From NCBI GenBank assembly GCA_011939005.1, contig GCA_011939005.1_4858.1: 64,000 bases of DNA, one strand, 5' to 3'. Positions 19,405 to 57,224 of this stretch are shown piece after piece; the first letter of the stretch is position 1; the number at the start of each line of letters is the position of its first letter. The notes below the pieces were generated by a model. The model ran no database searches. It worked only from the letters and a program-made list of their open reading frames with translations, and had not been told where the DNA came from. The DNA comes from a phage. A program made the translations under genes and the position numbers.

Positions 19405-19426
19405 AAATATACTGGAGCAACCTGCA

Positions 19427-28517: not shown

Positions 28518-28531
28518 GGTGACACCTTAGT

Positions 28532-29851: not shown

Positions 29852-29861
29852 TGCAACGTCC

Positions 29862-30986: not shown

Positions 30987-30988
30987 GA

Positions 30989-31978: not shown

Positions 31979-31990
31979 TGTCGTTACCTC

Positions 31991-33487
31991 TTATTGGAAT
32001 CCATCCAACTCACCGTTAGTATCGCCCAGAGTAATTTTTGAAGGTTGGGCGATTTGGTCAGTCGTGAGAATAATCGGTCTAATCTTAACGCTAGCCATGC
32101 CTGTTACCGCGACGGAATATGCACGTTCATCATTGTCCGTCGTGGCAAGCAGAGGACGTGGTGAGTCTGATGACGCTTCCCGTACCCAGGCAGGGGTGGC
32201 AGTTTCGGTGTTGTCGGTGTTGAAAACTAACGGACGTGGATTCGCTGCAGCGGAGGTTTCCGTAATCGGCACCACACGAAGCGATTCATTTTGGTCGATG
32301 TCCGTCAGAGTAACCACGGACGGTGCCCATGTTAGTTCTGCACCTTCGTCAATCAACGGCACAGGTTCATTGGCAACATCAATCATCTCCAAGATTGGCC
32401 AAAAGCCAGAAGAGGTGTAGATGTAGGTGTATGAACGATAGCTCCCACTGATAGACTGGTAATACGCTTGGTCGGCACCGAACTGGTGTCGTAACCACAC
32501 GTAATCCAGGAAGTTAGCATCAGTCGTGCTAAGAGTTCCCCATTCCCCATATACGTTCACCGACCCCAATTTGCTGGTCAGTGACAGGATAGAGGTGATT
32601 GACGGCGGTTTACTCCAATCAGGCGCGGCGGCGTTCTCGGTGTAATACGGGATAGACATTCTGAAATAATGCGTTCCTTCATCATCCCGTTTTACCATGT
32701 ATTTCAACTGTTCAACATCGACAGGTGTGTAAGTCGACTTCGGGCGAGGTCCTGCGTCTCCGGAATCAAATATTGCACCCTTGTTGTACAGGTCTGCCCA
32801 GGTAACGTTGCAAATCGCACGGGTCGGAACAAACACTACCGCCCCATTCAGAAAGAATTTGAGCCACTTGATAGCGTAGCGGTTAGGCCAGTTGGTGCCG
32901 TTATAGAGGGCATACACCATTTCATCAGATGTGAATAACTCTTCCGCGCTTACCAGCCCAAAAAATCCGTATAACTCATTACCGGCCATTAATCCTTTTG
33001 GCCCAGGGCCCGACTTCGGATACATCGCAATCGGTTCGTAAACATAGGTCATCTTGCATGACCCGGTATAGCACAAGGAGTTAGCGTGCGCCGTCAGAGT
33101 TACAGTTTCTGGCGTAGCGTATTTCATTAATGCAACGTTTGGACTGGTGATGTCACTCGCGGTTAAGTTCAACCCGTTCAATTCATTGAACGCCGGTAAC
33201 GCTTCCGCATGGGTTTGTGCGCTACGTGGAATACTCACCATCTTCGGGCCAGACTTGAACAGACTGGCCAGATTCAACCGGTCGTAATAGACCGTTATTT
33301 CCCCAGCAAATCCTTTACCGGGTTTACCTACCAACGTAATCTGTGTGTTTCGTCCGTTAACGTTTTTCGCAACAGGAACACCCCTGACCCCAATGGAGTC
33401 AGCGGTGATTTTTCCTGCTAAACCGGGATTGTCACGCACAATTTGTTGGCAGAGCAGTTCCATTGAAGGTTCTGTATACAACCCCAT
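31991..33487 (-). CDS. fiber-like protein (498 aa): N-domain, GPGP module, C-terminal NGELDGF
   Basis: RBS GGAG; VYYDRLNL, SGPGPKGL, ends TNGELDGFQ. Confidence 0.6.
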   Translation of the reverse strand: MGLYTEPSMELLCQQIVRDNPGLAGKITADSIGVRGVPVAKNVNGRNTQITLVGKPGKGFAGEITVYYDRLNLASLFKSGPKMVSIPRSAQTHAEALPAFNELNGLNLTASDITSPNVALMKYATPETVTLTAHANSLCYTGSCKMTYVYEPIAMYPKSGPGPKGLMAGNELYGFFGLVSAEELFTSDEMVYALYNGTNWPNRYAIKWLKFFLNGAVVFVPTRAICNVTWADLYNKGAIFDSGDAGPRPKSTYTPVDVEQLKYMVKRDDEGTHYFRMSIPYYTENAAAPDWSKPPSITSILSLTSKLGSVNVYGEWGTLSTTDANFLDYVWLRHQFGADQAYYQSISGSYRSYTYIYTSSGFWPILEMIDVANEPVPLIDEGAELTWAPSVVTLTDIDQNESLRVVPITETSAAANPRPLVFNTDNTETATPAWVREASSDSPRPLLATTDNDERAYSVAVTGMASVKIRPIILTTDQIAQPSKITLGDTNGELDGFQ

Positions 33488-33500
33488 GGCTTTTACTCCG

Positions 33501-34424
33501 TTACGGTAAGACTAATTCAAAAGCAAAGAATATCGTGGCCGAGTTCCCGACACCTGCGGTGTTACTAATCACCATAGGCACGGTGCCATACGCATAAGCG
33601 AATATGTTGTTGCTCCACAAAGGAGCTAATACAGCGGCACCTGACTCATTCGGCTGCACAGTCGCGCCTTGTCTTGCAAGTGAGTCAATCGCACCAAGAC
33701 CGAGGGCTGCGAACTGTGCACCGACAGGATACAAACGGCCCATTGTGTTTCGCCATTCACCGTTGTTGTAATCCTGTCCTGAGAGAACAGCGTCGTACGG
33801 GACTGCGTAAGGTAATCGGATACGGTACGTACGACCATCCTTCGTGACCTTACAATCTTGTTTAGTCGCCGTGGCTCCCTGCGGAACAATACTTCCGACA
33901 TCATCGGTCCCGTACATCATACCGTACTGATACGCCATTTGTACCGAGTTGGTTTTCGAATGCATCGTCGCTGGGAAGAAGACAATTCTCCCACGGAAAA
34001 TAAACTTGTGCCATTCCTGAGGGTCGTAGACAAACATGTTTCCCTGCTGTGCAGTCAACATAAGCTTCAGCTCGGCGGTATTAAAGAACTCGGTATTCGG
34101 TACTGTACCGAAATAACCTGAAGCCCAGTCACCACGCAAAATAGTTTGCGGACCCGGCCCGGTGTCCGGATAGAATCCTTGCGTAATCGGATTGCCGATA
34201 AGTCGTTCACTGTCCTTCACAGCAGCTACCCAATAACGATAGGTTGTATTCTTCGTCAGAGTATCGATATTATCTACGAACTCTACCGCGTTGCCCGATA
34301 AAGTTGCGTGGGGTGTGCCTGGATTGTAAACGTCGATTGTTGCGTTCCAACCTTCCTTGCGGTAGATTTCAATCGCGGTAAGACCTTTGCTGGCTTGGGA
34401 CGGCCAGCTTAACCGTATAGTCAT
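33501..34424 (-). CDS. fiber-like protein (307 aa): FN3-like N-module plus GPGP module
   Basis: Starts MTIRLSW; TTYRYWVAAVKDSER; DTGPGPQ. Confidence 0.55.
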   Translation of the reverse strand: MTIRLSWPSQASKGLTAIEIYRKEGWNATIDVYNPGTPHATLSGNAVEFVDNIDTLTKNTTYRYWVAAVKDSERLIGNPITQGFYPDTGPGPQTILRGDWASGYFGTVPNTEFFNTAELKLMLTAQQGNMFVYDPQEWHKFIFRGRIVFFPATMHSKTNSVQMAYQYGMMYGTDDVGSIVPQGATATKQDCKVTKDGRTYRIRLPYAVPYDAVLSGQDYNNGEWRNTMGRLYPVGAQFAALGLGAIDSLARQGATVQPNESGAAVLAPLWSNNIFAYAYGTVPMVISNTAGVGNSATIFFAFELVLP

Positions 34425-34433
34425 GACTGCCCC

Positions 34434-35432
34434 TTACTCGACCAGTTCAAAGATAGGGTAGTAACGCCCTTTCGTGGTGGGTGATAAATAGTTTATACGC
34501 TGAATCGTGGATACGGGTGTTCCACCGGCATTGTTAAAAATGCCACGATGGACCACACGGTCTTCCGCGGTGTCGTGTTCCATACAGAGAACTCCGGCAC
34601 CGAAATACGTTGCCGAGGTTCCCAAATTAGCCTGCCCCAGATAAGTATAACTGTTCGCTGCCCAGTTAGCCCAACGCTGTTTCCTCGGCACCTCGTTAAC
34701 CATCGTGTAAAGTAAATCGTTATACTCACACGGGTTGGTTAGAGAAGCGATTTCATCGTGGGTTTTCCCATTGTAGTCAGCTACGAAAGGATACGCAGGA
34801 GACTCGCTAGACGTCGTCAGGCCGCGAGGAAGACGCATAATGTACGTATCCCCTTTGTGGACTATCTTAGCGTCTTGTGGAGTGGCCGGTAGCGTTCCAT
34901 GGCCGTTCTCTGGGCCAGCATCGCCCGTACCATAGACTAAACCAGCTTGATAGAGGGAAGCCCAGTCCACAGGCGTATTCGGGAACTGCGACGTGTTAGA
35001 TAGCATGTAATAGATCTTCCCGTTTCGGGTAAATTTATACAACGCCACACGATCGGTTAACAGGTTAGGGAACATCGCCAAAAATGCAGGTGGCATTTGC
35101 GACGGAAGCCACTGTTCGTCGTAAGGAACCTCACCCATAAACCCTAAACGGTCGTTGCCGTTTAGAATAGTCATTGGGCCTATCCCGCGTTTTACCTCAA
35201 TGGTATATTTCTGGCTAGACGACGCTACTGTTTTACCGTTGGCGGTTACCGTCAGAAGGTAATAATAGGTTGCGCCTGGTGTGGCGGTGGTATCACGCCA
35301 TTCTGTCTCGCCGTTTGAGAGCGTTGCAATCGGTTCAGGCAAAGCGCTTGGTGTGATATCTTTAACATCACGGTAGATTTTTACTACCGTAGAGATTACG
35401 TTTGGATTTTTCCAACGCAAAGTAAAAGACAT
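34434..35432 (-). CDS. fiber-like protein (332 aa): FN3-like N-module plus GPENGHG module
   Basis: Starts MSFTLRW; paralog of 30989-31978. Confidence 0.55.
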   Translation of the reverse strand: MSFTLRWKNPNVISTVVKIYRDVKDITPSALPEPIATLSNGETEWRDTTATPGATYYYLLTVTANGKTVASSSQKYTIEVKRGIGPMTILNGNDRLGFMGEVPYDEQWLPSQMPPAFLAMFPNLLTDRVALYKFTRNGKIYYMLSNTSQFPNTPVDWASLYQAGLVYGTGDAGPENGHGTLPATPQDAKIVHKGDTYIMRLPRGLTTSSESPAYPFVADYNGKTHDEIASLTNPCEYNDLLYTMVNEVPRKQRWANWAANSYTYLGQANLGTSATYFGAGVLCMEHDTAEDRVVHRGIFNNAGGTPVSTIQRINYLSPTTKGRYYPIFELVE

Positions 35433-35443
35433 AGATGATACCT

Positions 35444-36934
35444 CTACTTAAAGCCGTCCAGTTCACCGTTAAGAGACGTTAACGTTGTCTTGTCAGGGGG
35501 CGTATACATTTCAGCGGTAGCCGCAATAGGTTGAAAATCGACAGTCTTCGGCAGCATTAATGCAGGCGGATGCAGTGCGAAACTGTTTTCTGAAGTAACG
35601 GCCACAGGTTGAAAATCGACAGTCTTCGGCAGCATTAATGCAGGCGGATGCAGTGCGAAACTGTTTTCTGAAGTAACAACTACCGGTTCGAAATCGGTAG
35701 TATCTGGATTACCGAGCACCAACGGCTTGAGACTAAACGTGTTTTCTGCGGACACGCTGCACGGTTGGAGGCTGTAATCTACCGCGCCGTGGATATCTTC
35801 TAAGCCCAAGGTAACCGTGGACTTATCCACCAACTCCAGCACCGGGAACCAGTAGTAGTTGCCCGCACTCGATGATTTTTCTAAGTTTGTCCAACTTGCT
35901 CCAGACAACGTCGCCATGCGATGATTGGCGACGTTGGTGTTCAGTGTATCTTTCAATAAACAGAACAGCGTCCAGTAACTGTTAATCGGTTTGTCCCACG
36001 TTCCATTATACAGAAAGTTGAACATCTCAAACTCACTACCTGCTAACTCAGCGGCAGTTGGGGTGCCGCTGACGTATGGGTCTTTCCCGGCACTAGGTAG
36101 ACGAACGCGGAAGTAAAACCTTTTGTTGTCTGCGCCTGTAAAGCTAATGATGCGTCCCTGGTTAACGGGCGTCGCCGCAGGGTATTTACCATTATCATCT
36201 GTTCCGTAAACGAGTCCGTTTGTATATAACGTATTCCAGGAGATGGAGCTAGCGACAGGACTGATCGGAAGGTAAATAACCCTACCCTGGTAAAAGAACT
36301 TGTACCAACCTTCGGCACCAGAATGTACCGGTGGTAACGCACCGGCCGATATAGTGGCATTAAGAAGTTGAGAGTGTGTAAACAACTCTGCAATTGTGGT
36401 TGTTCCGAAATAACCCGCGATAGTGTTACCTTGCAGCAACGTTTTAGGGCCAGGTCCAGAATCGGGGTAAATTGCACCGCTCGGGACGGTATAACGTATC
36501 GTTAAGCTGCCTATAAACGCAGGGCAATTACCTGAGATATTTAATTTCAACGTCTGCGGCGAAGCGCTCGGTTTAGGTAAACTTGCGTCAGGTGACTGCA
36601 AATCAGAAGCAACTAATGTAAGCCCCAATGCGTCGTTTATTGCAGGTAGCGCGTCTCGTACCGTTAAGACTGTATCTTTGATAGCCACAGTCGGCACAAA
36701 ATTAAATAAAGTGGCCAGGTTAATCCGGTCGTAGTACACGGTAACATTACCTTGTACACCTGTCCCTGGATACCCGGTGAAAACAGCTTTGGTGTTACGT
36801 TGGTTTAACGTAACTGAAGTTGGGCCGCTGGTTAAAGCAGCGATAGCCGGTGTCAGCTTAACAACTAAATCAGGGTTATCCCGATTGACTTGGTCGTATA
36901 CAAGCAGTGCCGACTCCTTCGAGTAAAATAGCAT
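35444..36934 (-). CDS. fiber-like protein (496 aa): N-domain, GPGP module, internal 26-aa tandem repeats, C-terminal NGELDGF
   Basis: VYYDRINL; DSGPGPK; repeated KTVDFQPVAVTSENSFALHPPALMLP; ends NGELDGFK. Confidence 0.6.
   Translation of the reverse strand: MLFYSKESALLVYDQVNRDNPDLVVKLTPAIAALTSGPTSVTLNQRNTKAVFTGYPGTGVQGNVTVYYDRINLATLFNFVPTVAIKDTVLTVRDALPAINDALGLTLVASDLQSPDASLPKPSASPQTLKLNISGNCPAFIGSLTIRYTVPSGAIYPDSGPGPKTLLQGNTIAGYFGTTTIAELFTHSQLLNATISAGALPPVHSGAEGWYKFFYQGRVIYLPISPVASSISWNTLYTNGLVYGTDDNGKYPAATPVNQGRIISFTGADNKRFYFRVRLPSAGKDPYVSGTPTAAELAGSEFEMFNFLYNGTWDKPINSYWTLFCLLKDTLNTNVANHRMATLSGASWTNLEKSSSAGNYYWFPVLELVDKSTVTLGLEDIHGAVDYSLQPCSVSAENTFSLKPLVLGNPDTTDFEPVVVTSENSFALHPPALMLPKTVDFQPVAVTSENSFALHPPALMLPKTVDFQPIAATAEMYTPPDKTTLTSLNGELDGFK
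35524..35684 (-). repeat. 78-bp period tandem direct repeat inside the 496-aa gene
   Basis: Two copies identical over 71 nt (GGTTGAAAATCGACAGTCTTCGGCAGCATTAATGCAGGCGGATGCAGTGCGAAACTGTTTTCTGAAGTAAC), flanked by degenerate copies. Confidence 0.85.
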
Positions 36935-36942
36935 AGGGACTC

Positions 36943-36978
36943 CGCATCGCCAAAAGAGGGGGCTCCGAAGAGCCCCTA
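36943..36978 (-). terminator. rho-independent terminator (UUCG loop)
   Basis: Stem GGGGCTC / GAGCCCC around TTCG, T-run on minus strand. Confidence 0.6.
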
Positions 36979-36981
36979 CAC

Positions 36982-37809
36982 TTAGCTGTTATAGTGGTAG
37001 TACGCCACGCCTTTCACGCCTTCCTCATCGATGCCCGTTTGGACAACCACGCGGTCGTACGATTTGTTAGCGAACTGAGCGGTGGATGTCGGCACATCCT
37101 GAACGGTGTTGCTGTTCAGTGGCCCCGCGTAGTTCGGAATACCCAGGTCATCCAACACCTTACGCAATCCAGCCCACTGCGGTAGGCCAGAAGCATCTAC
37201 TGTCAGTAGGTTTTTATACGCGGTAAAGTCAATACCATACGTCAACAAATCAATACACTTCTTACCGAGAGACGGTGAAATAGGCTCTTGAATCGCATTC
37301 AAGACATCCGATTTCACCGAAGTGTCTAGTACCGGTAAACCACGGTTATAACGCAACGTCGCAGAACCGATATAAGCCGGAGATGTCGATAGCGCTACGA
37401 TGTTCTGTGTATTGGTGTAATTTGGGGTATTGGGACCCGCCAGTGGGAGGTTATAGATATCGATTGCAGAGAAGTTTACTCCGTAAGTATCCAAGAGCAC
37501 CGAAAAGGCTGAATGGAGGTTGGGCGCGTCAAACGTGACGAACTGCGCCTGGACAGAAGGACCCCACGGCAATAACCGCGCTAAGTTCACACGGTCGTAG
37601 TAAACGGTGATTGCGTCTCGAAATCCGGAACCCTGAATACCGCGCAAGCGTGCCGACGTATTGCGGTTGTTGGAAGCTGCATTAACGGGAACCTGTGTCA
37701 CTTTCTCCACGTAGCAGTTTGCCGGCGACGCTTTAATAGGTAGGTTTGGGTTATCCCGGTTAATGAGGTCAAAGACCAACTCGTTTGACGGCTTAGCATA
37801 GTTGATCAT
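36982..37809 (-). CDS. fiber-like protein (about 275 aa), N-domain paralog
   Basis: ATG at second codon of tracked ORF with GAGG RBS; starts MINYAKPSNELVFDLINRDNP. Confidence 0.55.
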   Translation of the reverse strand: MINYAKPSNELVFDLINRDNPNLPIKASPANCYVEKVTQVPVNAASNNRNTSARLRGIQGSGFRDAITVYYDRVNLARLLPWGPSVQAQFVTFDAPNLHSAFSVLLDTYGVNFSAIDIYNLPLAGPNTPNYTNTQNIVALSTSPAYIGSATLRYNRGLPVLDTSVKSDVLNAIQEPISPSLGKKCIDLLTYGIDFTAYKNLLTVDASGLPQWAGLRKVLDDLGIPNYAGPLNSNTVQDVPTSTAQFANKSYDRVVVQTGIDEEGVKGVAYYHYNS

Positions 37810-37812
37810 CAA

Positions 37813-38700
37813 TTATACCTCGCTTGGATCGTCCAGATCGTTGAACTGGAGATACAACGTTCCGACGATGGTGGTACAGGTAACAGGCAGTTTCAACGCC
37901 AGCACATACTTGTACTTCGCGTTTGTCGGCATTGCAACAGGGTCATTCAGACCAACACTGATAACCTCCGCGCCCGCCAAACCGTAGGAAGCGGAAGTGG
38001 TCGCTACCCATGCAGTACCCGTGATATCTTTCAGCAGGTTAACCATATCCGTTAACGGCTGTCCGGACAGAATACCCGGCTTGTATGCCAGCAGAGCATC
38101 TCGGTACTTAGTGAAGTTGTACGGGTAGGAATAAACCTCTGCAATGACCGCAGTAACATTTTCGGAACCCATCTGACCGTTCGGGTATTTCAGACCGGTC
38201 AGGACGTTAGTGGTGACTGCAGAGACTAACGACTCATCACCTTTCACGACTTTAAATGTCGCCTGTCCAACCCAACCGATAGACTCTGGATGTGCAACAA
38301 CACGCACAGTACCTTCGGTCTTATCACCGTTCCATTCGATATCTGCGTCCTGCAGGTCAGCTTCTTCCAGAACAAAACCGTAACGTTGGTTCAGTCCAGG
38401 AATGGCCGCATACAAGGTTTCGTTGGATGGGCCGATCGCCAACGTGTCACCGATCAGCACTAACAAGTCTTCGACTTTCATGCGGTTGTAGAAGACATTT
38501 TTCTTACCCGACCAGGTAGAGCCCGTTACCCCATCTGCCGTAATTTTAATTTGCGTGTTACGGTTAGTCAGCGTTTCCTTCTCCGTACCACGGATGTCCT
38601 TTGGCGAGGACCAGATGATGTCAGTCATCTTAACAGCAAGCGAGTTCTGTGCGTTCACTGCTGCCAACAGGACGTCTTTAGAAGGTTGATAAATAGCCAT
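37813..38700 (-). CDS. fiber-like protein (295 aa), N-domain paralog
   Basis: Contiguous with neighbours, no intergenic gap; family N-terminus. Confidence 0.55.
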   Translation of the reverse strand: MAIYQPSKDVLLAAVNAQNSLAVKMTDIIWSSPKDIRGTEKETLTNRNTQIKITADGVTGSTWSGKKNVFYNRMKVEDLLVLIGDTLAIGPSNETLYAAIPGLNQRYGFVLEEADLQDADIEWNGDKTEGTVRVVAHPESIGWVGQATFKVVKGDESLVSAVTTNVLTGLKYPNGQMGSENVTAVIAEVYSYPYNFTKYRDALLAYKPGILSGQPLTDMVNLLKDITGTAWVATTSASYGLAGAEVISVGLNDPVAMPTNAKYKYVLALKLPVTCTTIVGTLYLQFNDLDDPSEV

Positions 38701-38710
38701 TCGCTAATTC

Positions 38711-39550
38711 CTAGTTGTTGTAGTGCAACATACACTCGCCGATTACTTTCGGGTCGTTCTGAATGCCGGTAATCAGCAATACGTTATCGTACGCTTTATT
38801 GGCGGTCGCCAACTCACTCGTTTTGTAGCGGGTAATTGTGCAGTTCGTCGGATCAAACGACGGTACCCCACGTGCGACCAATGTGGCCATCAGATTGGAC
38901 GTGTAACCCAAATCAAAGTTACTTCCTACATCCATTCGCCCGTTCTTAAACGAGGCCATAACCTGCACTTCATCGGTAAAGTCTTCCCCGTACGTCAAGA
39001 AGCCCATGTATTTCTTACCAGTGCTTGCTGCTGCAGGGTGGTTCAAAGCCAACAAGATGTCGTTTACCACGAGGTCTTCGAGGCTATTCTTACCCCGGAT
39101 AGACATAAAGGTGATGCTGCCAGTGTATTGGATACAGCTAGCGTTAATACGCATCGTGTTGTTTACGTTCAGATAAACGTATTGTTCTGGGATATCATCT
39201 GCAACCAGGTTTAATCCATAACGACCGTTCAGGTTCTGCGCAAACGCAGTACGTTTCGACTCCACGTTCAACCAACCGTAGGCATTCGGTGCAGTTACCT
39301 GAGGTGTCATGTTCTTAAATAAGTCGTTCAGCGACAAGCGCTTATAACGGAACGTCTGGGGACCGATATAGCCACGACCTTGACGACCACGAATGATAAT
39401 CTCAGTATTGGCACCGCTTGCTGTCGGTGTGATTGCTTTCGGCGTACCGATGATAGCATTGTCTAAACCCATCGGTAGCACAGCATCCGGGTTTTCGGCA
39501 TTAATCGCATCGTACAGATATTGTCGCTGAGACAGACTATATAAAGCCAT
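38711..39550 (-). CDS. fiber-like protein (about 279 aa), N-domain paralog
   Basis: Internal ATG with RBS GAGGAGG; ends LHYNN. Confidence 0.55.
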   Translation of the reverse strand: MALYSLSQRQYLYDAINAENPDAVLPMGLDNAIIGTPKAITPTASGANTEIIIRGRQGRGYIGPQTFRYKRLSLNDLFKNMTPQVTAPNAYGWLNVESKRTAFAQNLNGRYGLNLVADDIPEQYVYLNVNNTMRINASCIQYTGSITFMSIRGKNSLEDLVVNDILLALNHPAAASTGKKYMGFLTYGEDFTDEVQVMASFKNGRMDVGSNFDLGYTSNLMATLVARGVPSFDPTNCTITRYKTSELATANKAYDNVLLITGIQNDPKVIGECMLHYNN

Positions 39551-39569
39551 AATAGCCTCCTCGGCCAAA

Positions 39570-39612
39570 AAAGAAAGGAGTAGCCGGGAGGAGGATTTCC
39601 TCCTCCCAGCGA
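39570..39612 (-). terminator. hairpin, possible intra-operon terminator/attenuator
   Basis: Stem GGGAGGAGG / CCTCCTCCC with AAAT loop; T-run follows after a short spacer on minus strand. Confidence 0.45.
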
Positions 39613-39619
39613 GGCCTAA

Positions 39620-40531
39620 TTAGGCATTAAAGTGCAGGTACATGATGCCCTGGAAGTTGGTGCACAGAGTGTCATCCAGCTGCAGCAGCAGAACCTGGTT
39701 GTAAGCAGTGTTTGCACCTTCAACCGGTTTCTTAGGTTCGTCGCCTGAAGCAGTGCCATCGTCAGTAGTAGAACCAACGTACAACACGTTAGCACCTTTC
39801 AGGTTATAATCCGCAGGCTCATCAGATGCAACCCACAGTTCCGGCACAACTTTATTCAGCTCAACCGGGAATGCAGAGTCGCCAGCGATAACACCTTTCG
39901 CCTGTACTTTCAGGAATGGTGCGATTGCTGTGCAGTCTACACCGTAAGAGTAGATGTAACCCTGACCCTTCGCTTCGCTTGGACCATCTGGGTAAACCAG
40001 GCCGTCGAGCTTGGTTTGTGTTACCACCAGACTCAGACGTTCACCAACCTGAGGCTTAGCACCGATTTTAACCGGGATGCTGCCCAGATAAGCGTAGCAG
40101 TCTTCTTTGAAGGTAATGACGTGGTCAACCGGTGCTGGGTCCGGATCGTTCGGGTTAGTCAGCGGCGGGTTGGTATTTTCCGGAATAGCCGCCGGAACAA
40201 TATCATCTTCGGTCAGTTTCAGACCGTATTGGGTGTTCAGGGTCGTCAGCAGGTCGGTGGTGGTTTTCGGCAATTTAACGTCGAGGTATGCCGTTACATT
40301 ACGGAACAGCGCACCGCCTTCCAGGCGATTATAAGTCACGTCCTGAGTACCGATGTACCCGGAGTTCTTTTTCGCAGTCAGGGTCATGCTGGTATTGCGA
40401 TCAGCACCTTCATCGCTAATAGGGGTCGGTGTGCCGAGCGTTATTTTAGAAAGTTCCAGTTCTGCGTCTGGGTTTTTCTCATTAATAAAATCCAGAACCA
40501 GCTTATCTGACGTTTTGTTTAAAGGTTTCAT
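39620..40531 (-). CDS. fiber-like protein (303 aa), N-domain paralog
   Basis: RBS AAGGAAG; ends LHFNA. Confidence 0.55.
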   Translation of the reverse strand: MKPLNKTSDKLVLDFINEKNPDAELELSKITLGTPTPISDEGADRNTSMTLTAKKNSGYIGTQDVTYNRLEGGALFRNVTAYLDVKLPKTTTDLLTTLNTQYGLKLTEDDIVPAAIPENTNPPLTNPNDPDPAPVDHVITFKEDCYAYLGSIPVKIGAKPQVGERLSLVVTQTKLDGLVYPDGPSEAKGQGYIYSYGVDCTAIAPFLKVQAKGVIAGDSAFPVELNKVVPELWVASDEPADYNLKGANVLYVGSTTDDGTASGDEPKKPVEGANTAYNQVLLLQLDDTLCTNFQGIMYLHFNA

Positions 40532-40552
40532 TCTTACTTCCTTTACTCAGGA

Positions 40553-41398
40553 TTAATCAGGGTCGTTGTAATGCAAATACAAACGCCCGCCAAAATTCAG
40601 ACAGTACAACGACAGCTCCACAATCAGCACGTTGTCGACTGCTGGGTTGGTTGGTAATTCCGCTTTGTTACGCCCGTTATAGACGACGACGGCTTCACGA
40701 AGGTTAAAGTCGATTGGGTTACGGTACGTTGTCCAGTTATCACCGGTGACCGTTTTGAGAATCTGCGCCAGACGTTCTGCGGTTATCGCAGCACCTAGTC
40801 GTTGAAATTCCTCCGCGAAATTATCAAAGCGCCAGGGATACGAATAAACTGCACCTTGACCGACCTTGATGTTAAAATACGGATACTCGTAAGGCATCAC
40901 TGTTAACGGTTCGAAGTTTGCAGGAAGCAACGCATCGCCTGGTAACAGCTGTACCTGTTGTTGCCCTATCCAACCTAAAGAAGAGGGCGTGGCAATCAGA
41001 TCCACACGCCATGTCTTCCTGTCGATTTCGGTATTCACCACATCTGCAGGTTTAAGGCTGAGACCGTAATACTGGTTAATTAACCCGACCACGTCATGCA
41101 TCTGGTAAACAGCATCGAGACGTGCAGGAACACGTAAAGGTTGAATCCCGTCTGGGTCGGTAAACATGTCTGCGAAGTCAACACGATCGTAATAGACGGT
41201 AGTGGCACCGATAGCATTAGCCGTGGCCAATGCCTGAATGCGCACCATCGCGTTGTGACCGTTAGCTTTTGCCAAGTCTTCGTCAGACGTTGGAATCGCA
41301 GGGACACCAAAAACAACATCCTCGACTTTTAAATCGAGATTGTTTTCGACGTTAACTTCCGCGATAATAATCTTTTCAGCTGTGGCTAAAAGTGGCAT
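40553..41398 (-). CDS. fiber-like protein (281 aa), N-domain paralog
   Basis: RBS AAGGA; ends LHYNDPD. Confidence 0.55.
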   Translation of the reverse strand: MPLLATAEKIIIAEVNVENNLDLKVEDVVFGVPAIPTSDEDLAKANGHNAMVRIQALATANAIGATTVYYDRVDFADMFTDPDGIQPLRVPARLDAVYQMHDVVGLINQYYGLSLKPADVVNTEIDRKTWRVDLIATPSSLGWIGQQQVQLLPGDALLPANFEPLTVMPYEYPYFNIKVGQGAVYSYPWRFDNFAEEFQRLGAAITAERLAQILKTVTGDNWTTYRNPIDFNLREAVVVYNGRNKAELPTNPAVDNVLIVELSLYCLNFGGRLYLHYNDPD

Positions 41399-41408
41399 GT
41401 CAAAATCC

Positions 41409-42251
41409 TTATATCGGGAGATAATGAAGGATGAGATTACCGGCGTAGTTGCTGTCCGCAGCTAGCTTGATAATCGCCACACGCTGATAATCGGGGTTGT
41501 AACTATCGTTCGGTGTGACTGAAGTTATCCCCATAAATCGTGCACCTTGGAGTGCAATTTGTTCAGGTTGCGCATTCGCCCCCGTCACATATGCAAACTT
41601 TAATGGCACCACTTCATTCAACAACTCAACATCCGCTGCAGTGATTGCACGGTTGTAAACCCAATCGGTGGTGAACTGTTTTTGCAGTTCAGTCCAATCG
41701 TAACCATACGCCACATACTCGGCCTGTGGTTTACTAGCAACCACGAACGGTGCGATTATTGCGCTGAGGTCAACATCCGTCACCACATCCGCCAAGTTCG
41801 GGAAGAACTTCGCAAAGCGTAAACGGAAACCACCTTGCCAGGCCAAGCAACCGGGCTTAATAGTCACATCGATTAACCAGCTTTCTCCCAAATCTTTTAC
41901 TGACTGGTCAACGATATCGTCGGCAACTAAAGACAAGCCGTATTTCGCATTCAGAAACGGCAACAACTCAGAGAGTTTATTTACCGGGTCGGCAACGACT
42001 ACCGGTATTACGTTCCTGAACAGAATTTCCATTTCGATACGGTCGTATTCGAGCGTAACGTTGCCTTTGTAGCCCTTGCCGTTCAACCCGTATAAGAGCA
42101 CACGTGTATTCCGGTCAGCGCCAGGCGTTTGGACAGACTCAGGGAAGCCAGTTGCAACCTGCTCCCATGTGAGTGGATTGGCCGTTAATCCGTTCTGTCG
42201 GTTAATAGCATCTAACAACATCTCTTTCGAGGGCTTATCGTAAATAGACAC
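41409..42251 (-). CDS. fiber-like protein (280 aa), N-domain paralog
   Basis: Apparent GTG start with AGGAGG RBS overlapping upstream stop. Confidence 0.55.
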   Translation of the reverse strand: MSIYDKPSKEMLLDAINRQNGLTANPLTWEQVATGFPESVQTPGADRNTRVLLYGLNGKGYKGNVTLEYDRIEMEILFRNVIPVVVADPVNKLSELLPFLNAKYGLSLVADDIVDQSVKDLGESWLIDVTIKPGCLAWQGGFRLRFAKFFPNLADVVTDVDLSAIIAPFVVASKPQAEYVAYGYDWTELQKQFTTDWVYNRAITAADVELLNEVVPLKFAYVTGANAQPEQIALQGARFMGITSVTPNDSYNPDYQRVAIIKLAADSNYAGNLILHYLPI

Positions 42252-42261
42252 CTATACCCTC

Positions 42262-43059
42262 CTAGTTGTTAAAGTGTAAGTTGAGGCTGCCCTGGAAGTT
42301 CGTACATTTATCGGTCAGTTGCACTGACACGACTTTCGCGAACGCCGTATTTGCTCCCGGTAAGTCTGCAGGTACGCCGTCGAATACGACAGTAGCACCA
42401 CGCAAGTTATACGGGGATGGGGTATCTTCAGCCACCCAAATCTCAGGAACACATTTGTTGAGTTCGATTGCTAACGCCGTGTCATCTACTTCGATACCGA
42501 CCGCTAAGAGGCTCAGGAAACGAGAGATGTGGCTACAATCGATGTCGCGCGAATAGATATACGCCTGACCCAACTGGATGTCCTGGTGATCCGGGTACAG
42601 AAGACCGCTCAACTCTGTATTGGTTATTACTTCTGCCAGAGGTGTAGCAGGTTTCAGCTCGATGACCGCTTGACTTCGCCACTCGTGGGAAGTTTCAACA
42701 GCAACGACTGTGTGAGTCTGTCCATCAATGGGGTTATCTTCGATATCCTCAGGTAAGATAGACAGATTAAAACGCTCGTTAATCGCCGCGAGTAAGTCGT
42801 GCGTGGTATGCACATCTTCATCGCCAAAGGCAACATCGCCTGTAAGGTAGTCCTCTAATGGACGACGATGATAGTCCACAATCACTTGCGTACCTTCATC
42901 ACCGCGCATTTTCGAGGTTAGTACCACCTCCGAATCACGACCGTCTACTGACACAACCTCCGGCAGTCCGATATCAACATCGTCAAAGGTAAGCGGTGGG
43001 CTTATCTTATTCTCTTCGTTGATGAGTTTTAGCAGATTCTGTTTTGAAGTAAAAGACAT
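42262..43059 (-). CDS. fiber-like protein (265 aa), first gene of the paralog array
   Basis: Starts MSFTSKQNLLKLINEEN; ends LHFNN. Confidence 0.55.
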   Translation of the reverse strand: MSFTSKQNLLKLINEENKISPPLTFDDVDIGLPEVVSVDGRDSEVVLTSKMRGDEGTQVIVDYHRRPLEDYLTGDVAFGDEDVHTTHDLLAAINERFNLSILPEDIEDNPIDGQTHTVVAVETSHEWRSQAVIELKPATPLAEVITNTELSGLLYPDHQDIQLGQAYIYSRDIDCSHISRFLSLLAVGIEVDDTALAIELNKCVPEIWVAEDTPSPYNLRGATVVFDGVPADLPGANTAFAKVVSVQLTDKCTNFQGSLNLHFNN

Positions 43060-43184
43060 CGCGTTAACTCGAGTTAAGGGATTATTGAGGTCGTAAGATT
43101 TTTAGACCTCCTGCCAGCATATTAAAAGCGTAGAGCGTACCAGAATCCGAACAAGAGCAAACAAAAAGAAAAGGAAACAAAAAA

Positions 43185-51799: not shown

Positions 51800-52183
51800 T
51801 TACGATAACTCGCCCATGTAAATTACTTCATAACCGAACCACTCACCGATTTCAATAAGGTAAGAAACTAGCAAGTGGCGATGACAGAATTTCCCCGGTG
51901 GGCAATAGCACATTAGTACGACCTCGCCCTGGCGGAGAATCTCTATCAACTTATCAGTGTCTTCATCAAACAACCGACTAAGTTTCTGCAGGTAGCGTTT
52001 GGTATACGCAGCTTCTGCGTCGGGGCCTTTATCAGACTTCTTGTAGTCCATCAGAAAGTCCCAGTCGGGTGCCAAATATTTCAACCCCGACTTAACTGTT
52101 ATATCCAGCTTTGGCAAATTCCGTTTTTCAGCTATCCGCCACTTCGCCAGTTGGAGCGTCCACAGCTTTACTTGCTTTGGCAT
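51800..52183 (-). CDS. DUF488 (YeaO-like) domain protein
   Basis: C-terminal LMCYCPPGKFCHRHLL matches the DUF488 signature. Confidence 0.5.
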   Translation of the reverse strand: MPKQVKLWTLQLAKWRIAEKRNLPKLDITVKSGLKYLAPDWDFLMDYKKSDKGPDAEAAYTKRYLQKLSRLFDEDTDKLIEILRQGEVVLMCYCPPGKFCHRHLLVSYLIEIGEWFGYEVIYMGELS

Positions 52184-53135
52184 TTTTCGCTATCTCTTTT
52201 TCTTTCTCCTGAAGCGCTTTAAAATGTGGCGCATACGCGCACCACTCTTCCGCGGTAAACGATGTGATACATAACCGGTTAGTATCTTCACTTACCGTAA
52301 AGGTCGTGTGGTTTCTTTCCGGGTCCTTAAAGTTAGCAAAAGCCGGTACGCCCAAACCCATAGCAGAAATAGCACTACCGAGAGCAGAACACCATACCCG
52401 TCTGTAAGCATCGTTGATTTTAATCTCCCATCCCACTGACGGTGTAATACCAAGACTACGATAATTCTGCGACTTTGCCGACGGATGGGCATAAACGATG
52501 AGCACGTTATTCTCACGGTCTATCGCGAATTCGTAGTTGTTGTTGTTACTGACCTGTACCAACCTACGAATATCTTCCGGCAACTCCTGCCACATTTCCA
52601 GTTTCTCTTTATCCCACGCAGGTGTTAGAAGCGGTGGAACGCGACCGGCATGATCTTGGAAATACATCAATTCGCTATAGAGGTTCTTTAAGCGAGCGTA
52701 CTCGTCTAATGTCCAATCTCCCAGCTCTAGACTATTCTCCAACGCATCTAGCTTATTCCAACCAACAACTGCATAGGCGTGGTGCTGTTTGCGCGTAATA
52801 CCACACATCAGTTTAGCGAGACCGTTAACAACATTGCCCTGCTGAACCAGAGGCGACCAGCCGTTAGCATATCCAGCGCTAACGACAGGCTGGAAGTTCT
52901 CTTCCCCGAGCACCGCCCATGTAACATGTTCGGTTTGTGCATGGTGTCTATCCATCAACCGTTCAACAATGGCCACGCTACAAAGAATTTCCATGAAGTT
53001 CGCGTTACCTCCATTCCACATGGAGAAATACGCAGGACGGACATGTCGTGCTTCATTGGCCGGTGCTTTGCATAGCAGCTGATACATTATCCAGGTGGAA
53101 TCCAACCCTGCTGAAAACGAAACGAGCTTCGCCAT
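52128..53135 (-). CDS. putative PP-loop (adenine nucleotide alpha-hydrolase) superfamily protein (335 aa)
   Basis: N-terminal SFSAGLDST resembles the SGGxDS PP-loop; assignment tentative. Confidence 0.3.
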   Translation of the reverse strand: MAKLVSFSAGLDSTWIMYQLLCKAPANEARHVRPAYFSMWNGGNANFMEILCSVAIVERLMDRHHAQTEHVTWAVLGEENFQPVVSAGYANGWSPLVQQGNVVNGLAKLMCGITRKQHHAYAVVGWNKLDALENSLELGDWTLDEYARLKNLYSELMYFQDHAGRVPPLLTPAWDKEKLEMWQELPEDIRRLVQVSNNNNYEFAIDRENNVLIVYAHPSAKSQNYRSLGITPSVGWEIKINDAYRRVWCSALGSAISAMGLGVPAFANFKDPERNHTTFTVSEDTNRLCITSFTAEEWCAYAPHFKALQEKEKEIAKNAKASKAVDAPTGEVADS

Positions 53136-53143: not shown

Positions 53144-53476
53144 TCACTTTTGTTTCTGTTTTTCTTCACGCATCAACTTAGCGTTCAGGTCGACCATGTA
53201 ACCCGGTTTTTCCATCACCTGCACTTCTTCCCAATTGCTCCCCACTGCCATTTTGAGGGTTCCTTGACGTACCGCGATTTCTTTTGCAGTGTCACGGCAG
53301 ACCTCTAACGCTTCGTCCAAATCGTTAAAGGTTGTCTTCTGTGGTCCGTTAAAGGTTTTAGCGCATTCCAGGAATACACGTTCGTAAACATCCTGGTCGA
53401 GTAAGAGTGGTTTGTCCGCAGCGTGGACAACCATAGGCGCAACGAGTGCGCCTAACAGAACTAAAACTTTCTTCAT
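53144..53476 (-). CDS. secreted/periplasmic small protein (110 aa)
   Basis: Classic Sec signal peptide MKKVLVLLGALVAPMVVHA with A-x-A cleavage site. Confidence 0.55.
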   Translation of the reverse strand: MKKVLVLLGALVAPMVVHAADKPLLLDQDVYERVFLECAKTFNGPQKTTFNDLDEALEVCRDTAKEIAVRQGTLKMAVGSNWEEVQVMEKPGYMVDLNAKLMREEKQKQK

Positions 53477-53605
53477 TGTTTCACCGTGTGTATAAGTTGA
53501 TAACGTGGGGTTTCTTCTACCACAACATCAAAGGATGGAATACATGGGGTTAAAATCAAATCCATGTAACCTAGGGTCAATAGCGCACTTGCGGCGCTAT
53601 TAGCA

Positions 53606-55366
53606 TTACGCGTTCTCTGTCCAAGCACGCCCACGCAGCGTTTCACCGCGTATGTCATATTGCTTATATTTCGAAGAGTCGTAAGACGCAGGTAGGAAGA
53701 TCTGATGAACAATATCCGCCAGTCGACGAGCACCAAGGTTCTCTACAGCATTGGCTTCCATTGTTTTCTCAGCGATGAACGTATAGGTGTCCATGTCGTA
53801 CTGCGTTTCCACCCCTTCGGTTTTCAACAACTTAATCATGCCGTGGAACTCACTGTTATCCAACTTACAGATAGCAATCAGTGCCTCGGTATCCAGCGAA
53901 GACATTTTCGCTCTTAACGGAAAACGTCCCTGGAGTTCTGCCATGAGTTTAGAAACAGGCGCTTGAGCAAACGACCCAGCAGCGACAAAAAGCACATTGG
54001 TTGTGTCAACGCCATGATAAATACCCCCTTCAACCATTTTCAACAAGCTACGCTGCACACCACTACGGGATACACGTGCGGTGTGTTGCGTGTCAGTCTC
54101 GATAAGTTTGTCAAACTCATCCAAGAACACCACCGCAAAGTTCTCAACGAAATCATGCCCATTACAGTTGGGTAGTTTCTTGAGGTCTTTGCGGCTGACT
54201 GTTTCTTTTTCTGGTGCAACTGTTTCAGGTATCTCGTAATGCCAGAGCCGTTCATCGGCGTATTTGGTAAATTCTGGAGAACCTTCGAACACGTCATCCC
54301 ACCAACGACACCACTTCTCAGGATCTTCCAAACGAGACAACAAGCGAATAGTAAACGCTGTAGCGTTGATCGGGAGCCAATTAATGCCCACCGGCTCGAC
54401 GTCCTCGTCGTCGCCGTTAAACGTGTCGAACAAATCGTAGAAATCTGAGCCATCGGCACACGAGAGTGGCAGGTTATTTGACATCAGCGCTTGACCGGCA
54501 TCAACGTATAAGTCAATCTGTTCGCCTAAAGCCATCAGCGACATAAACTCACCCATATACCCAATCGCGCCCGGTATATCACCATCCATTAACTTATCGA
54601 CTTGACTTTCAAGTTCTACACTATTCAACAGTTCAGAAATTGACGAGACACCGAGCAGACTCCTTGCGATTTCCGACATCTTATCTATCCATTCCTGCAC
54701 AGTACGGCCACCGAGCGTAACAGAATAGATATCGAAGTCTTCGTAGGTTAAATTGTGTTGACGGCAATAGCCAACCATAAACGCGCGAAGACAATAGATG
54801 TCTTGGTATTCTTCGTACAACTCCTTCGGATCGAGTATACCCTGACGCCGTAATAGTTCGGTGTGGTCACGTTTAGCTTGATACCGCAGCTGGCGCTCAG
54901 CTGCGCGCTCGTCTAGTTCGCGCTCAACTTCCTTACGGGATTCACGCTCCCACTCTTCACGAGTAAGACGATTACCGTCTACTTCCGTCTCGACACGTCG
55001 TTTGGTACGCAGCTCGATATACCAGTCGGGCAATTCGACAGAACGCGCTAAGTCGGCTAAGTCCTTGCCGATTGATGTAACTTCCCGGCCTACGTAGCCT
55101 GATTCTGTAAACGCGGTCATGTCGAGTTCCAGCACAGGTAAACCGAATTTAGTTTTCAGTACCCGCATCAACGCTGTTTTACCCGTGCCTGTTGGACCTT
55201 CTATTAAAAGGTTCTGTTTGTGGACCGACATACGGTCCACTACGTTGAGTTTGTTGGCACGATATCGATTACGTAGCGCAATCGCCAGCATTTTCTTTGC
55301 CTGCGTTTGTCCGTATACGTAACGGTCGAATAGCGCCACTATCTCAACCGGCGTGAGGTTTTCCAT
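53606..55366 (-). CDS. hslU: HslU-like AAA+ ATPase/unfoldase (586 aa)
   Basis: N-terminus GQ..AK..LAIALRNRYR....nLLieGPTGTGKT (Walker A) then TESGYVG; C-terminus FLDEFDK...GVQRSLLK.VEG...AAGSF...LQGRFP...GARRL, colinear with HslU including an inserted domain; RBS AGAGGA. Confidence 0.8.
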   Translation of the reverse strand: MENLTPVEIVALFDRYVYGQTQAKKMLAIALRNRYRANKLNVVDRMSVHKQNLLIEGPTGTGKTALMRVLKTKFGLPVLELDMTAFTESGYVGREVTSIGKDLADLARSVELPDWYIELRTKRRVETEVDGNRLTREEWERESRKEVERELDERAAERQLRYQAKRDHTELLRRQGILDPKELYEEYQDIYCLRAFMVGYCRQHNLTYEDFDIYSVTLGGRTVQEWIDKMSEIARSLLGVSSISELLNSVELESQVDKLMDGDIPGAIGYMGEFMSLMALGEQIDLYVDAGQALMSNNLPLSCADGSDFYDLFDTFNGDDEDVEPVGINWLPINATAFTIRLLSRLEDPEKWCRWWDDVFEGSPEFTKYADERLWHYEIPETVAPEKETVSRKDLKKLPNCNGHDFVENFAVVFLDEFDKLIETDTQHTARVSRSGVQRSLLKMVEGGIYHGVDTTNVLFVAAGSFAQAPVSKLMAELQGRFPLRAKMSSLDTEALIAICKLDNSEFHGMIKLLKTEGVETQYDMDTYTFIAEKTMEANAVENLGARRLADIVHQIFLPASYDSSKYKQYDIRGETLRGRAWTENA

Positions 55367-55575
55367 TAATTTTCCTCTTTCAATATCTCAGCAACTGCTT
55401 TACGGCACGCATTCACCGCGTCAGGATAAGTGGTACTGTTCGGGTCTACGCGGTCAATGCACATTCTGAACGTACTGGTTGCGGTCTCGCGACGTTCTGC
55501 AGTGCGGGTACTGGTGCTGATGGCGATATAAATACAAAACAACACAGCAGCCACGATCGGCCAACGTAGATTCAT
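55366..55575 (-). CDS. small membrane protein (69 aa)
   Basis: Single hydrophobic helix (IVAAVLFCIYIAI); stop overlaps hslU-like start. Confidence 0.45.
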   Translation of the reverse strand: MNLRWPIVAAVLFCIYIAISTSTRTAERRETATSTFRMCIDRVDPNSTTYPDAVNACRKAVAEILKEEN

Positions 55576-56273
55576 CAGTAATCCCCCGTTGCCCCTATCG
55601 CAGTCGCTACTTTACTGACAACCTCGTCAACCGGAAGCACCACCTCGTCTTTCTTGCTCACAATCTCTGGTACTTCTTTGACATGTTCAACGGTCACGTC
55701 AAACTTCCGAGTATAACCAACGAGCAGGTTGGCCATTTCTGCACGACTAACGAACTGTTGTTCTTCCGACAGATGTAACGACGTATCAAGAAGTCCAGAA
55801 TGCATGAAGTTTTCAATGAGTTGGTCTTCTTCCGCTTTGAAGTCGTACCGCTCGTTCGGGGCGGCCACAAACGCATAACCGAAATATTTCCCTTCTTCCT
55901 GTTCAGGACGTAGCGATTTAACTAACTCCTCAGCGTGTTCACAGAAGTCCGCCAAAGTATAATCGTCGAGTGTGGCAACTGCGGTTTCTGTTACAATTTC
56001 ACCGGTGTCGAGTTCAGTGAGGTGCATCACCCAAAGATGCCATGGTCGCGGTTGGTCGAACAGCCCACCGACTAACATATCTGTGGCGATAGCACGAATA
56101 CGAGGACTTGCCGTAAAGTGAAAACCACGGCCCGCGTACGGCCCGAGGCGACGAATCGAACTGCCTATAAACGTGATACGATTCAGAGCGTTTTCAGCGA
56201 CGGTGTGTGCCGTACGTTCTGTGGCAACTTTCGGGTTATACTTTTTGTTACGGGGTTTCTTTTGCTTAGCCAT
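55575..56273 (-). CDS. hypothetical protein (232 aa)
   Basis: ORF with start/stop overlaps to both neighbours (coupled). Confidence 0.5.
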   Translation of the reverse strand: MAKQKKPRNKKYNPKVATERTAHTVAENALNRITFIGSSIRRLGPYAGRGFHFTASPRIRAIATDMLVGGLFDQPRPWHLWVMHLTELDTGEIVTETAVATLDDYTLADFCEHAEELVKSLRPEQEEGKYFGYAFVAAPNERYDFKAEEDQLIENFMHSGLLDTSLHLSEEQQFVSRAEMANLLVGYTRKFDVTVEHVKEVPEIVSKKDEVVLPVDEVVSKVATAIGATGDY

Positions 56274-56743
56274 TAGTTAAAAACCTTTTTGCAAACTGTG
56301 TGGAATACTTTACGAATTTCACGAAGGGATTGTTCGGTGTGCAGATAACGATACGTTATCTTCCACGCGTTATACGTGTTTTTCAGGGTGATTTCGCTGA
56401 GGTCATAAACGAAATCATCATCAGGGTACATGAGTCTCGCCATGGATAAATCCCACAATGGTGGAATATCCGCTTTCATTAACTCAGCAACTAGCTCATG
56501 CGCTTTGTGCTCAAAGCCAACACCAAGAACAAACACTACATGGAACTCCCCTGGCGAGTTCTTTTTAGAATATGGTCCGTGTCCATGACATGACCACATT
56601 GTCGTCGCGCCGGGGTAACGGCAAATAACTTCACACGCATCCCGTACCCCACGCTCGACCCAACCGTTTACGAGCGCTTCGGATGCCCGTAGTTTAAACC
56701 GATCCAAAACTTTCAGATCCACGCCGCCGTATAAAACTGGCAT
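56273..56743 (-). CDS. hypothetical protein (156 aa)
   Basis: ORF in coupled operon. Confidence 0.5.
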   Translation of the reverse strand: MPVLYGGVDLKVLDRFKLRASEALVNGWVERGVRDACEVICRYPGATTMWSCHGHGPYSKKNSPGEFHVVFVLGVGFEHKAHELVAELMKADIPPLWDLSMARLMYPDDDFVYDLSEITLKNTYNAWKITYRYLHTEQSLREIRKVFHTVCKKVFN

Positions 56744-56771: not shown

Positions 56772-57224
56772 TTAATGGTTGTGTTCTGTAAAAATTGCGA
56801 GTGCGAGCCAGTGCTCCATCACTCTTTCCATCACATCTGGGTCAGGTCGATAGATGAGTCTAAACGTCCAGCTTGGATAACAGAGATTCGCATTGCCTTC
56901 TTGACGCAGCCAAGTAAAGTTTAACTGAAAACGTTTCCCGTATTCGTGCGGCTGCCATCCTTCTAATAAATGATTAATGTCTTTAAGACCAGCCTCGGTT
57001 GCCACAAATGTTAAGCTGTGGTGTCTACGTGTACGAAGCTTGTCTCCGTCTTTGCGAACTTCTCCCGTGAATGCCCAAACGGTTGCGATATTCGGCCATT
57101 CGCTAAATGCCCTAATGATTGCACGCGTTTTAACATCGACTGGTTTTTCAGCATCCAGCGCCCGGATTGTGCGCTGCTTGTACACGGCCAATTCCGCATC
57201 ATTGACGACTGAACATTGAAACAC
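56772..57224 (-). CDS. hypothetical protein (150 aa)
   Basis: ORF in operon. Confidence 0.45.
   Translation of the reverse strand: MFQCSVVNDAELAVYKQRTIRALDAEKPVDVKTRAIIRAFSEWPNIATVWAFTGEVRKDGDKLRTRRHHSLTFVATEAGLKDINHLLEGWQPHEYGKRFQLNFTWLRQEGNANLCYPSWTFRLIYRPDPDVMERVMEHWLALAIFTEHNH

Follow-up and report, generated by a model that had tools for sequence, protein, structure and literature searches.

A tail-less HslU-family AAA+ ATPase of a Salmonella jumbo phage as a candidate stand-alone unfoldase

The DNA analyzed here is a 64,000-nt stretch of a phage genome (GenBank assembly GCA_011939005.1, contig GCA_011939005.1_4858.1), hereafter referred to as the window. Its minus strand encodes, at positions 53606..55366, a protein of 586 amino acids that, judging from profile, structure and fold matches, is an HslU-family AAA+ ATPase. 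The motor motifs of HslU are all present, a helical domain unique to this phage family replaces the I-domain of HslU, and the C-terminal tail that docks HslV is missing. Our preferred interpretation, which we hold tentatively, is that this protein represents a functional, accessory, tail-less HslU derivative that would unfold or remodel proteins on its own, independently of a peptidase, with the family-specific helical domain setting its targets.

An earlier note on this DNA, made from its letters alone, had placed at 53606-55366 an HslU-like AAA+ unfoldase, described as an orphan without a cognate HslV protease. These coordinates proved exact: the open reading frame (ORF) starts at an ATG and runs uninterrupted over its 586 codons. 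The window derives from an SPN3US-like jumbo phage of Salmonella (genus Seoulvirus, genome of about 240 kb), and the gene shares 98.4% identity with its counterpart in Salmonella phage SPLA3, 97% with that of phage 1252 and 95% with that of MET_P1_082_240 (hereafter MET_P1), which is annotated as hslU.

The HslU-type motor, its insert and its C-terminus

Full-length orthologs with 42-73% identity are present in phage SPAsTU and in the Erwinia jumbo phages Huxley, Machina, ChrisDB, Caitlin, Kwan, Wellington and pEa_SNUABM_x, and more remote versions with other inserts in Phobos, Derbicus, CR5 and RAY/Ea35-70. All of them are covered by a single family of unknown function, PHROG 4339, the profile of which matches residues 1-578 of the window protein along positions 2-527 of its 552 positions (3.2e-149); RAY gp116 (1.9e-180) and Phobos gp130 (1e-178) are assigned to the same family. 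The gene family is already annotated in GenBank and one of its members has been localised. In the searchable papers we found no description of the lost tail, of the unique insert, of the repeated loss by deletion or of the association with phage proteasome homologs, all dealt with below.

The assignment to HslU is supported by several comparisons. When solved structures were searched, the top ten matches were all HslU (1g4a_E, E = 9e-49), with ClpX next at about 1e-25. The top NCBIfam model was TIGR00390 (hslU), with 208.9 bits, while Pfam returned generic AAA and AAA_2 domains only. An AlphaFold (AF2) model built from a 56-sequence alignment, with a predicted local distance difference test score (pLDDT) of 88, had HslU/ClpY as its best fold matches, and in its conserved halves the AAA+ body is about 40% identical to Salmonella HslU. 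The claim that the protein is an HslU-like unfoldase is thus borne out, ClpX being clearly second. A closer relationship to another AAA+ family had been named as what would refute that claim; HslU ranks first, although the score stays under the equivalog cutoff of TIGR00390 (362.45 bits). Membership in the ClpX family was considered and rejected: ClpX models reached 119-130 bits against 209 for HslU and covered the N-terminal half alone (E values of about 1e-25 to 1e-37 on that AAA+ half), the position of the insert and the C-terminal half are HslU-like, and the zinc-binding domain zf-C4_ClpX was absent from the Pfam results.

The match to HslU is colinear but split. Residues 1-109 (55040..55366, minus strand) correspond to HslU 1-109; they make up the N-terminal half of the large AAA+ subdomain and contain the Walker A motif GPTGTGKT (residues 57-64) and the aromatic-hydrophobic pore-1 loop GYVG (residues 90-93). 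The C-terminal AAA+ part (residues 402-586; 53606..54163, minus strand) aligns through residue 568 with HslU 242-414, and includes Walker B (DEFDK, 416-420), sensor-1, the arginine finger region ELQGRFPLR (477-485) and sensor-2 (GARRL, 545-549). Walker A G57PTGTGKT64, the pore loop G90YVG93, D416 and E417 of Walker B, the arginine finger R481 and sensor-2 G545ARRL549 are invariant in the 56-sequence alignment. The AAA+ module is therefore complete and colinear with that of HslU, and both formation of a hexamer and ATPase activity can be predicted from it. With respect to the colinearity that the earlier note had claimed, Walker A, the inserted domain and GARRL are all in place; GARRL, taken there as a C-terminal region, is instead sensor-2, about 40 residues before the end, and not a C-terminal docking element.

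As in bacterial HslU (ClpY; E. coli 1g4a and 5ji3, H. influenzae 1g3i), the large subdomain is split between Walker A and Walker B, and the position of the split is identical. What is inserted there differs. Residues 110-401 (54164..55039, minus strand) form an insert of about 290 residues where HslU carries an I-domain of about 130 (HslU ~110-241), i.e. one twice as long and showing no homology to the HslU I-domain, with a conserved LPDWY motif at its start. When modelled alone, the insert gave a confident all-helical structure (pLDDT 80, predicted template modelling score 0.70). This model had no fold relative outside the family, its only match in a viral structure library being another member, and a search of 1.84 billion proteins with the insert profile retrieved two cluster representatives, both from within the family. 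Inserts differ between genera and evolve faster than the motor: the non-synonymous divergence (dN) from Huxley amounts to 0.69 for the insert and to 0.24-0.25 for the AAA+ halves. These comparisons identify the insert as a predicted helical domain that is unique to this phage family and replaces the I-domain.

The second departure from HslU concerns the C-terminus. HslU is reported to bind and activate HslV through its C-terminal tail (PMC6429459, PMC4106860), a role for which Seong et al. (2002) is also cited. The tail motif x[FY][IV]L, mostly as …DLSRYIL, was found in all 87 bacterial hits and in none of the 31 phage-type proteins. The latter end 8-14 residues past a conserved (Y/F)D(I/L)xG, in sequences that vary from one protein to another. 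The window protein accordingly has no tail of the …(E/D)DL(S/A)R(F/Y)IL type and ends in a short, non-conserved helix; the hairpin following VEG is, in addition, 4 amino acids shorter than that of HslU. A check for the residues with which HslU docks HslV had been proposed, and its outcome is negative.

Taken together, the window protein departs from HslU in having an unrelated insert and no …DLSRFIL tail, in having no adjacent hslV, and in being phage-encoded and accessory. Other PHROG 4339 proteins (RAY gp116, Huxley gp130, Wellington gp148, Phobos gp130 and that of SPAsTU) resemble it in being tail-less HslU-derived motors with an enlarged insert, encoded by accessory genes of chimallin-type jumbo phages. 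Within this family, RAY gp116 is set apart by AAA+ halves that are only 31-34% identical to those of the window protein; its insert is another one, its pore loop reads GYYG, and Walker B is followed by a long insertion. The Phobos-type proteins differ by inserts of 400 amino acids and by their tails.

Loss of the gene and HslV-type peptidases in related phages

The unfoldase locus is a deletion hot-spot in Seoulvirus. In phages EC001, JN03, SPLA1a and Lh1B, codons 69-586 and downstream genes have been lost between two copies of the 9-bp direct repeat GTTGATGCG, leaving an in-frame stub of 75 amino acids (…GKTALMR|EEKQKQK*). In the window, the upstream copy lies at codons ~66-68 (55164..55172, minus strand) and the downstream copy inside a gene for a 110-amino-acid protein (53169..53177, minus strand). 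A separate deletion, in SPN3US, the SPFM phages and SEGD1, joins codon ~13 to a hairpin in the 3′ untranslated region via an imperfect repeat of about 12 nt. The upstream copy of that repeat includes GCGCTATT at codons 11-13 (55329..55336, minus strand); the other copy is the 3′ arm of a perfect 8-bp hairpin, AATAGCGC-N7-GCGCTATT, which directly follows the stop codon (53579..53601, minus strand) and has no T-run. Comparison of these genomes indicates that the gene has been lost at least twice independently, by microhomology deletions. As SPN3US grows without it, the gene is dispensable for lytic growth under laboratory conditions.

Where the gene is retained, its sequence is constrained. In the comparison with MET_P1, the ratio of non-synonymous to synonymous substitution rates (dN/dS) was 0.13 for the gene as a whole, 0.07-0.09 for the AAA+ halves and 0.17 for the insert, values which indicate that retained copies are under purifying selection. 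The pattern fits an accessory gene with a conditionally useful, host- or stress-specific role.

We searched the six-frame ORFs of the window of at least 40 amino acids with three queries: an HslV profile from bacteria, an HslV-like profile from phages, and E. coli ClpP. The bacterial profile had been built from homologs of at least 86% identity, to which HslV copies of Gram-positive origin, taken from contaminant records, were added. Neither HslV profile nor E. coli ClpP detected a homolog in the 64 kb, the positive control scoring 330 bits, so the statement that no HslV-like peptidase is visible in the window holds. The ClpP query likewise retrieved nothing among the ORFs of MET_P1 or of RAY. 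When Salmonella HslV was used in a tblastn search of 50,697 phage records (E up to 10), only bacterial-contaminant contigs were obtained, a null result that is misleading by itself, since it would suggest that phages have no HslV.

At genome scale, the designation "orphan" did not survive. The full-genome search for HslV that the earlier note had called for was run on relatives, and an HslV-type peptidase of 163 amino acids was found in all Seoulvirus genomes. In the complete genome of MET_P1, the same ORF (185101-185592) was ranked first by the bacterial HslV profile (9.5 bits, E = 0.14) and by Phobos gp123, a protein labelled "peptidase HslV family" in RefSeq, both rankings being sub-threshold. 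The match of the encoded protein to PHROG 1040, "peptidase HslV family", is at 2.9e-38; its accession is WNT47814 in SPLA3 and WFG41727 in MET_P1. Its gene is 97-100% identical in all of about 30 Seoulvirus records, including SPLA3, 1252 and MET_P1; in SPLA3 it is annotated as a peptidase and lies about 103 kb from the unfoldase gene. The window's own genome can thus be expected to carry this peptidase beyond the visible 64 kb. As relatives encode an HslV-type Thr peptidase elsewhere, "orphan" holds within the window only, where no hslV is adjacent to the hslU-like gene; the sole copy in relatives is about 100 kb away.

The 163-amino-acid protein starts with MTTIAFDGKVLAADGQ…, where its HslV counterpart reads MTTIVSV…VIAGDGQ. 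M1-T2-T3, D14, K30 and G122-S-G124 are invariant in a 51-sequence alignment of the family, which therefore keeps the equivalents of HslV Thr1 (N-terminal after removal of Met), Asp17 and Lys33 as well as GSG. The family profile matched the solved HslV structures 1m4y (3e-13) and 5ji3 (8e-11), and also proteasome β5, and aligned with bacterial HslV over its full length with a probability of 98.3% in hhalign. By active site and by profile homology alike, the protein qualifies as an HslV-type peptidase. It probably corresponds to the phage proteasome homolog (PPH) of Fuchs et al. (2021; PMC8665760), likewise a compact (about 140-165 amino acids) HslV-like Thr peptidase of Caudovirales with conserved Thr1, Asp, Lys and GSG; the assignment is based on size, phage distribution and similarity to HslV. 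That paper reports no unfoldase partner for PPH.

Further observations were made on HslV and HslU records of phages. Three divergent HslV-fold subfamilies occur in jumbo phages with an HslU-like gene, represented by Huxley gp125 (positions 1037-1564 of sequence L014), Phobos gp123 (L017, 1146-1649) and RAY gp56 (L020, 61-609). RAY gp56 has no MTT start; its N-terminus is atypical (MPYGGVMSLLIY…), so that it might rely on Ser, depend on processing or lack activity. In pSal-SNUABM-04 (MT710307.1), an HslU-like protein encoded at 106144-107871 has been deposited as "putative DnaA protein". The paper on this phage states that it has HslV genes (ORF 1 and ORF 116) but lacks HslU (PMC7823757); the genome does carry the HslU-like gene, about 2.4 kb downstream of ORF 116. 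The "phage" records OR847286, OR844988, OR846616, MT835528 and AGRM01000004 (L003, L009-L012) are bacterial contigs with host hslVU operons. Contaminant records of this kind (UNVERIFIED Listeria, Staphylococcus and Enterococcus "phages", and Salmonella whole-genome shotgun contigs) inflate the apparent matches to HslU and HslV in phages.

Neighbouring genes and other regions of the window

Directly upstream, the unfoldase gene is preceded on its strand by three genes (55366..56743) for proteins of 156, 232 and 69 amino acids (PHROGs 7413, 6965 and 28359, function unknown), in none of which a Pfam domain was found. As stop and start codons overlap by 1 nt at 56273, 55575 and 55366, these genes and the HslU-like gene probably constitute a translationally coupled operon. 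Scans for sigma-70 promoters and terminators gave no enrichment over shuffled sequences. The 156-amino-acid PHROG 7413 protein, the gene of which is coupled to the operon ending in the HslU-like gene, is one of two tandem paralogs (56273-56743, and 56772-57224 for a protein of 150 amino acids, both on the minus strand), both in PHROG 7413 and without a Pfam domain. The 69-amino-acid protein (55366-55575, minus strand; PHROG 28359) has an N-terminal transmembrane helix.

Downstream of the unfoldase gene, the window retains a 23-codon remnant (53473..53546, minus strand) of a gene for a 161-amino-acid Peptidase_S80-like protein (PHROG 7478), about 430 nt of which have been deleted. This is deduced from a blastn gap (L001, 9823 to 10252) and from the C-terminus "...CIPSFDVVVEETPRYQLIHTVKQ", which matches SPN3US gp149 and the MET_P1 protein. 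The gene is intact in SPN3US (gp149), and follows the unfoldase gene intact in MET_P1 and SPLA3. Proteins of this family have about 150 amino acids; PHROG 7478 is labelled "head maturation protease", and Pfam Peptidase_S80 matches them with up to 33.6 bits. Next to the remnant, the 110-amino-acid protein (53144-53476, minus strand; PHROG 10627, function unknown) has a Sec-type signal peptide (…VVHA|AD). It shares a C-terminal A(L/V)xxCRxxAxEI motif with the 69-amino-acid protein on the other flank of the unfoldase gene, and the two may be paralogs.

Other features of the window are given here for completeness. A DUF488-N3a gene (51800-52183, minus strand; 46 bits) overlaps with its start, by 56 nt, the end of a PHROG 8825 gene for a 335-amino-acid protein (52128-53135). 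Two adjacent, overlapping radical-SAM genes are located on the plus strand at 19391-20341 and 20334-21662 (Pfam Radical_SAM 1e-15 and 1e-14, plus Fer4_12). The region from about 28500 to 43100 (minus strand) consists of paralog arrays, with repeated ORFs of about 440-500, 330 and 310 amino acids followed by seven of about 265-300. In MET_P1, some of these paralogs are annotated as glycosyl hydrolases and the array is about 5.5 kb longer, so that copy number varies between close relatives.

Partners and role of the unfoldase

A stand-alone role is suggested because the motor is intact, the I-domain has been replaced and the docking tail is gone. A complete hexamer-type motor with a GYVG pore loop would hold on to polypeptides and, at the expense of ATP, unfold or translocate them, and the new helical domain, in place of the substrate-selecting I-domain that HslU carries above its pore, would pick specific phage or host proteins. 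Without the HslV-docking tail, the unfoldase would act independently of a peptidase, and the HslV-type peptidase of the phage appears to act independently of the unfoldase. Among the roles that the earlier note had put forward, remodelling of host or phage proteins is the best remaining reading. There is a precedent in the clade for an unfoldase working without a peptidase, namely ClpX in the remodelling of MuA.

With respect to location, the phage family that encodes the protein forms a nucleus-like compartment. RAY gp116, the only PHROG 4339 protein with experimental data, is described as an accessory protein of the "HslUV protease family" that co-localises with the DNA of the phage within the phage nucleus (Prichard et al., 2023; PMC10299810), and SPN3US is reported to encode a chimallin homolog (PMC9365700). 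A nuclear location of the window protein is thus plausible by analogy, and the unfoldase might, more tentatively, act inside the phage nucleus.

Several observations weigh against this stand-alone interpretation and favor instead a phage-encoded HslUV-like protease, in which the unfoldase hexamer would feed an HslV/PPH-type Thr peptidase through a tail-independent interface, the two genes being unlinked in Seoulvirus. An HslV-fold gene is present in all four unfoldase-bearing lineages examined: Seoulvirus (PHROG 1040), Machinavirus (PHROG 1040 and Huxley gp125, of PHROG 23394), Derbicusvirus (Phobos gp123) and Agricanvirus (RAY gp56, of PHROG 11389). In both Machinavirus and Derbicusvirus, one copy precedes the unfoldase gene on the same strand, 1.8-2.6 kb upstream of it, a conserved linkage of about 2 kb. 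Such co-occurrence and linkage are the pattern expected of a functional pair of common origin, and descent from a bacterial hslVU operon is the parsimonious history. Tail loss could then reflect a new interface rather than uncoupling. The peptidase family keeps Thr1, Asp17, Lys33 and GSG, and its apical region is about 30 residues shorter than that of HslV; HslV Lys28, which we take to be the ligand of the HslU carboxylate in the H. influenzae HslUV structures, corresponds to Asn or to a variable position in the phage proteins. Both partners are thus without canonical docking elements, which is compatible with a co-evolved new interface. Finally, the localisation of RAY gp116 may not transfer to the window protein, given the 31-34% identity of their AAA+ halves and their different inserts.

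The distribution of the two genes argues against such a protease. The Seoulvirus peptidase is of the generic PPH type, mostly found in phages without an HslU-like gene: PHROG 1040 peptidases occur in about 490 phage records and HslU-like genes of the PHROG 4339 type in about 45 (the unfoldase search matched 137 records, most of those beyond the 45 being bacterial-contaminant contigs or N-terminal-only, ClpX-like matches). In the Seoulviruses that lost the unfoldase by two independent deletions, the peptidase is unchanged, at 97-100% identity. Neither the window nor the whole genome of MET_P1 contains the linked paralog of the gp125/gp123 type, and no docking motif is conserved at the C-terminus of the unfoldase. 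The change at the Lys28 position and the shorter apical region of the phage peptidases also speak for independence of the two proteins. Furthermore, the co-occurrence is phylogenetically non-independent, and the genome start of Wellington, unlike that of other Erwinia jumbo phages, has no PPH gene. Taking both sides into account, we consider an HslUV-like protease unlikely for the window protein, while regarding it as a serious competitor. The wider proposal that chimallin-type jumbo phages encode a proteasome-like ATP-dependent protease, with the tail-less unfoldase docking a PPH/HslV-type peptidase via a new interface in the phage nucleus, we regard as quite unlikely.

Much less probable are three further explanations. 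The earlier note had suggested that the unfoldase could hijack host HslV. Salmonella has HslV, and the AAA+ halves of the window protein are, as said, about 40% identical to host HslU; but the docking and activating tail is missing in all 31 phage-type proteins, which makes hijacking of host HslV very unlikely, and, should the protein reside in the nucleus as RAY gp116 does, that compartment would presumably be closed to host HslV. Equally improbable to us is a partnership with the small Peptidase_S80-like proteins of the SPN3US gp149 type. Such a gene is the direct downstream neighbour of the unfoldase gene in MET_P1, in SPLA3 and, as two copies, in pEa_SNUABM_29; in Huxley it stands two genes downstream, in Wellington four genes upstream. 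RAY and Phobos have no such neighbour, and the proteins, about 150 amino acids against a Peptidase_S80 profile of 229 positions, are putative peptidases only. Since presence and absence are reciprocal, the window keeping the unfoldase without an S80-like gene and SPN3US the opposite, an obligate partnership is disfavored. That the gene is a decaying relic without present function, to which its repeated loss within Seoulvirus and evident dispensability might point, we hold to be no more credible, as the low dN/dS, the intact catalytic motifs and the full-length orthologs in several genera speak for a maintained protein.

If a phage protease of the proteasome-like kind did exist, no earlier unfoldase-peptidase machine would be encoded by a virus, and the PPH family would gain its first unfoldase partner, with the Seoulvirus copy as one unlinked, dispensable version of the machine; the co-occurrence and the 2-kb linkage in two genera make a testable candidate for a viral unfoldase-peptidase pair. 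If the protein is instead the stand-alone unfoldase that we tentatively prefer, its interest lies in HslU itself, the textbook partner-dependent unfoldase, of which it would be a natural test: an HslU motor without HslV. Genomes with the gene (SPLA3, 1252, MET_P1) and without it (SPN3US, EC001) constitute natural, isogenic-like pairs that suit a comparison of phenotypes, and study of the protein could bring to light remodelling or quality control of proteins within the phage nucleus.

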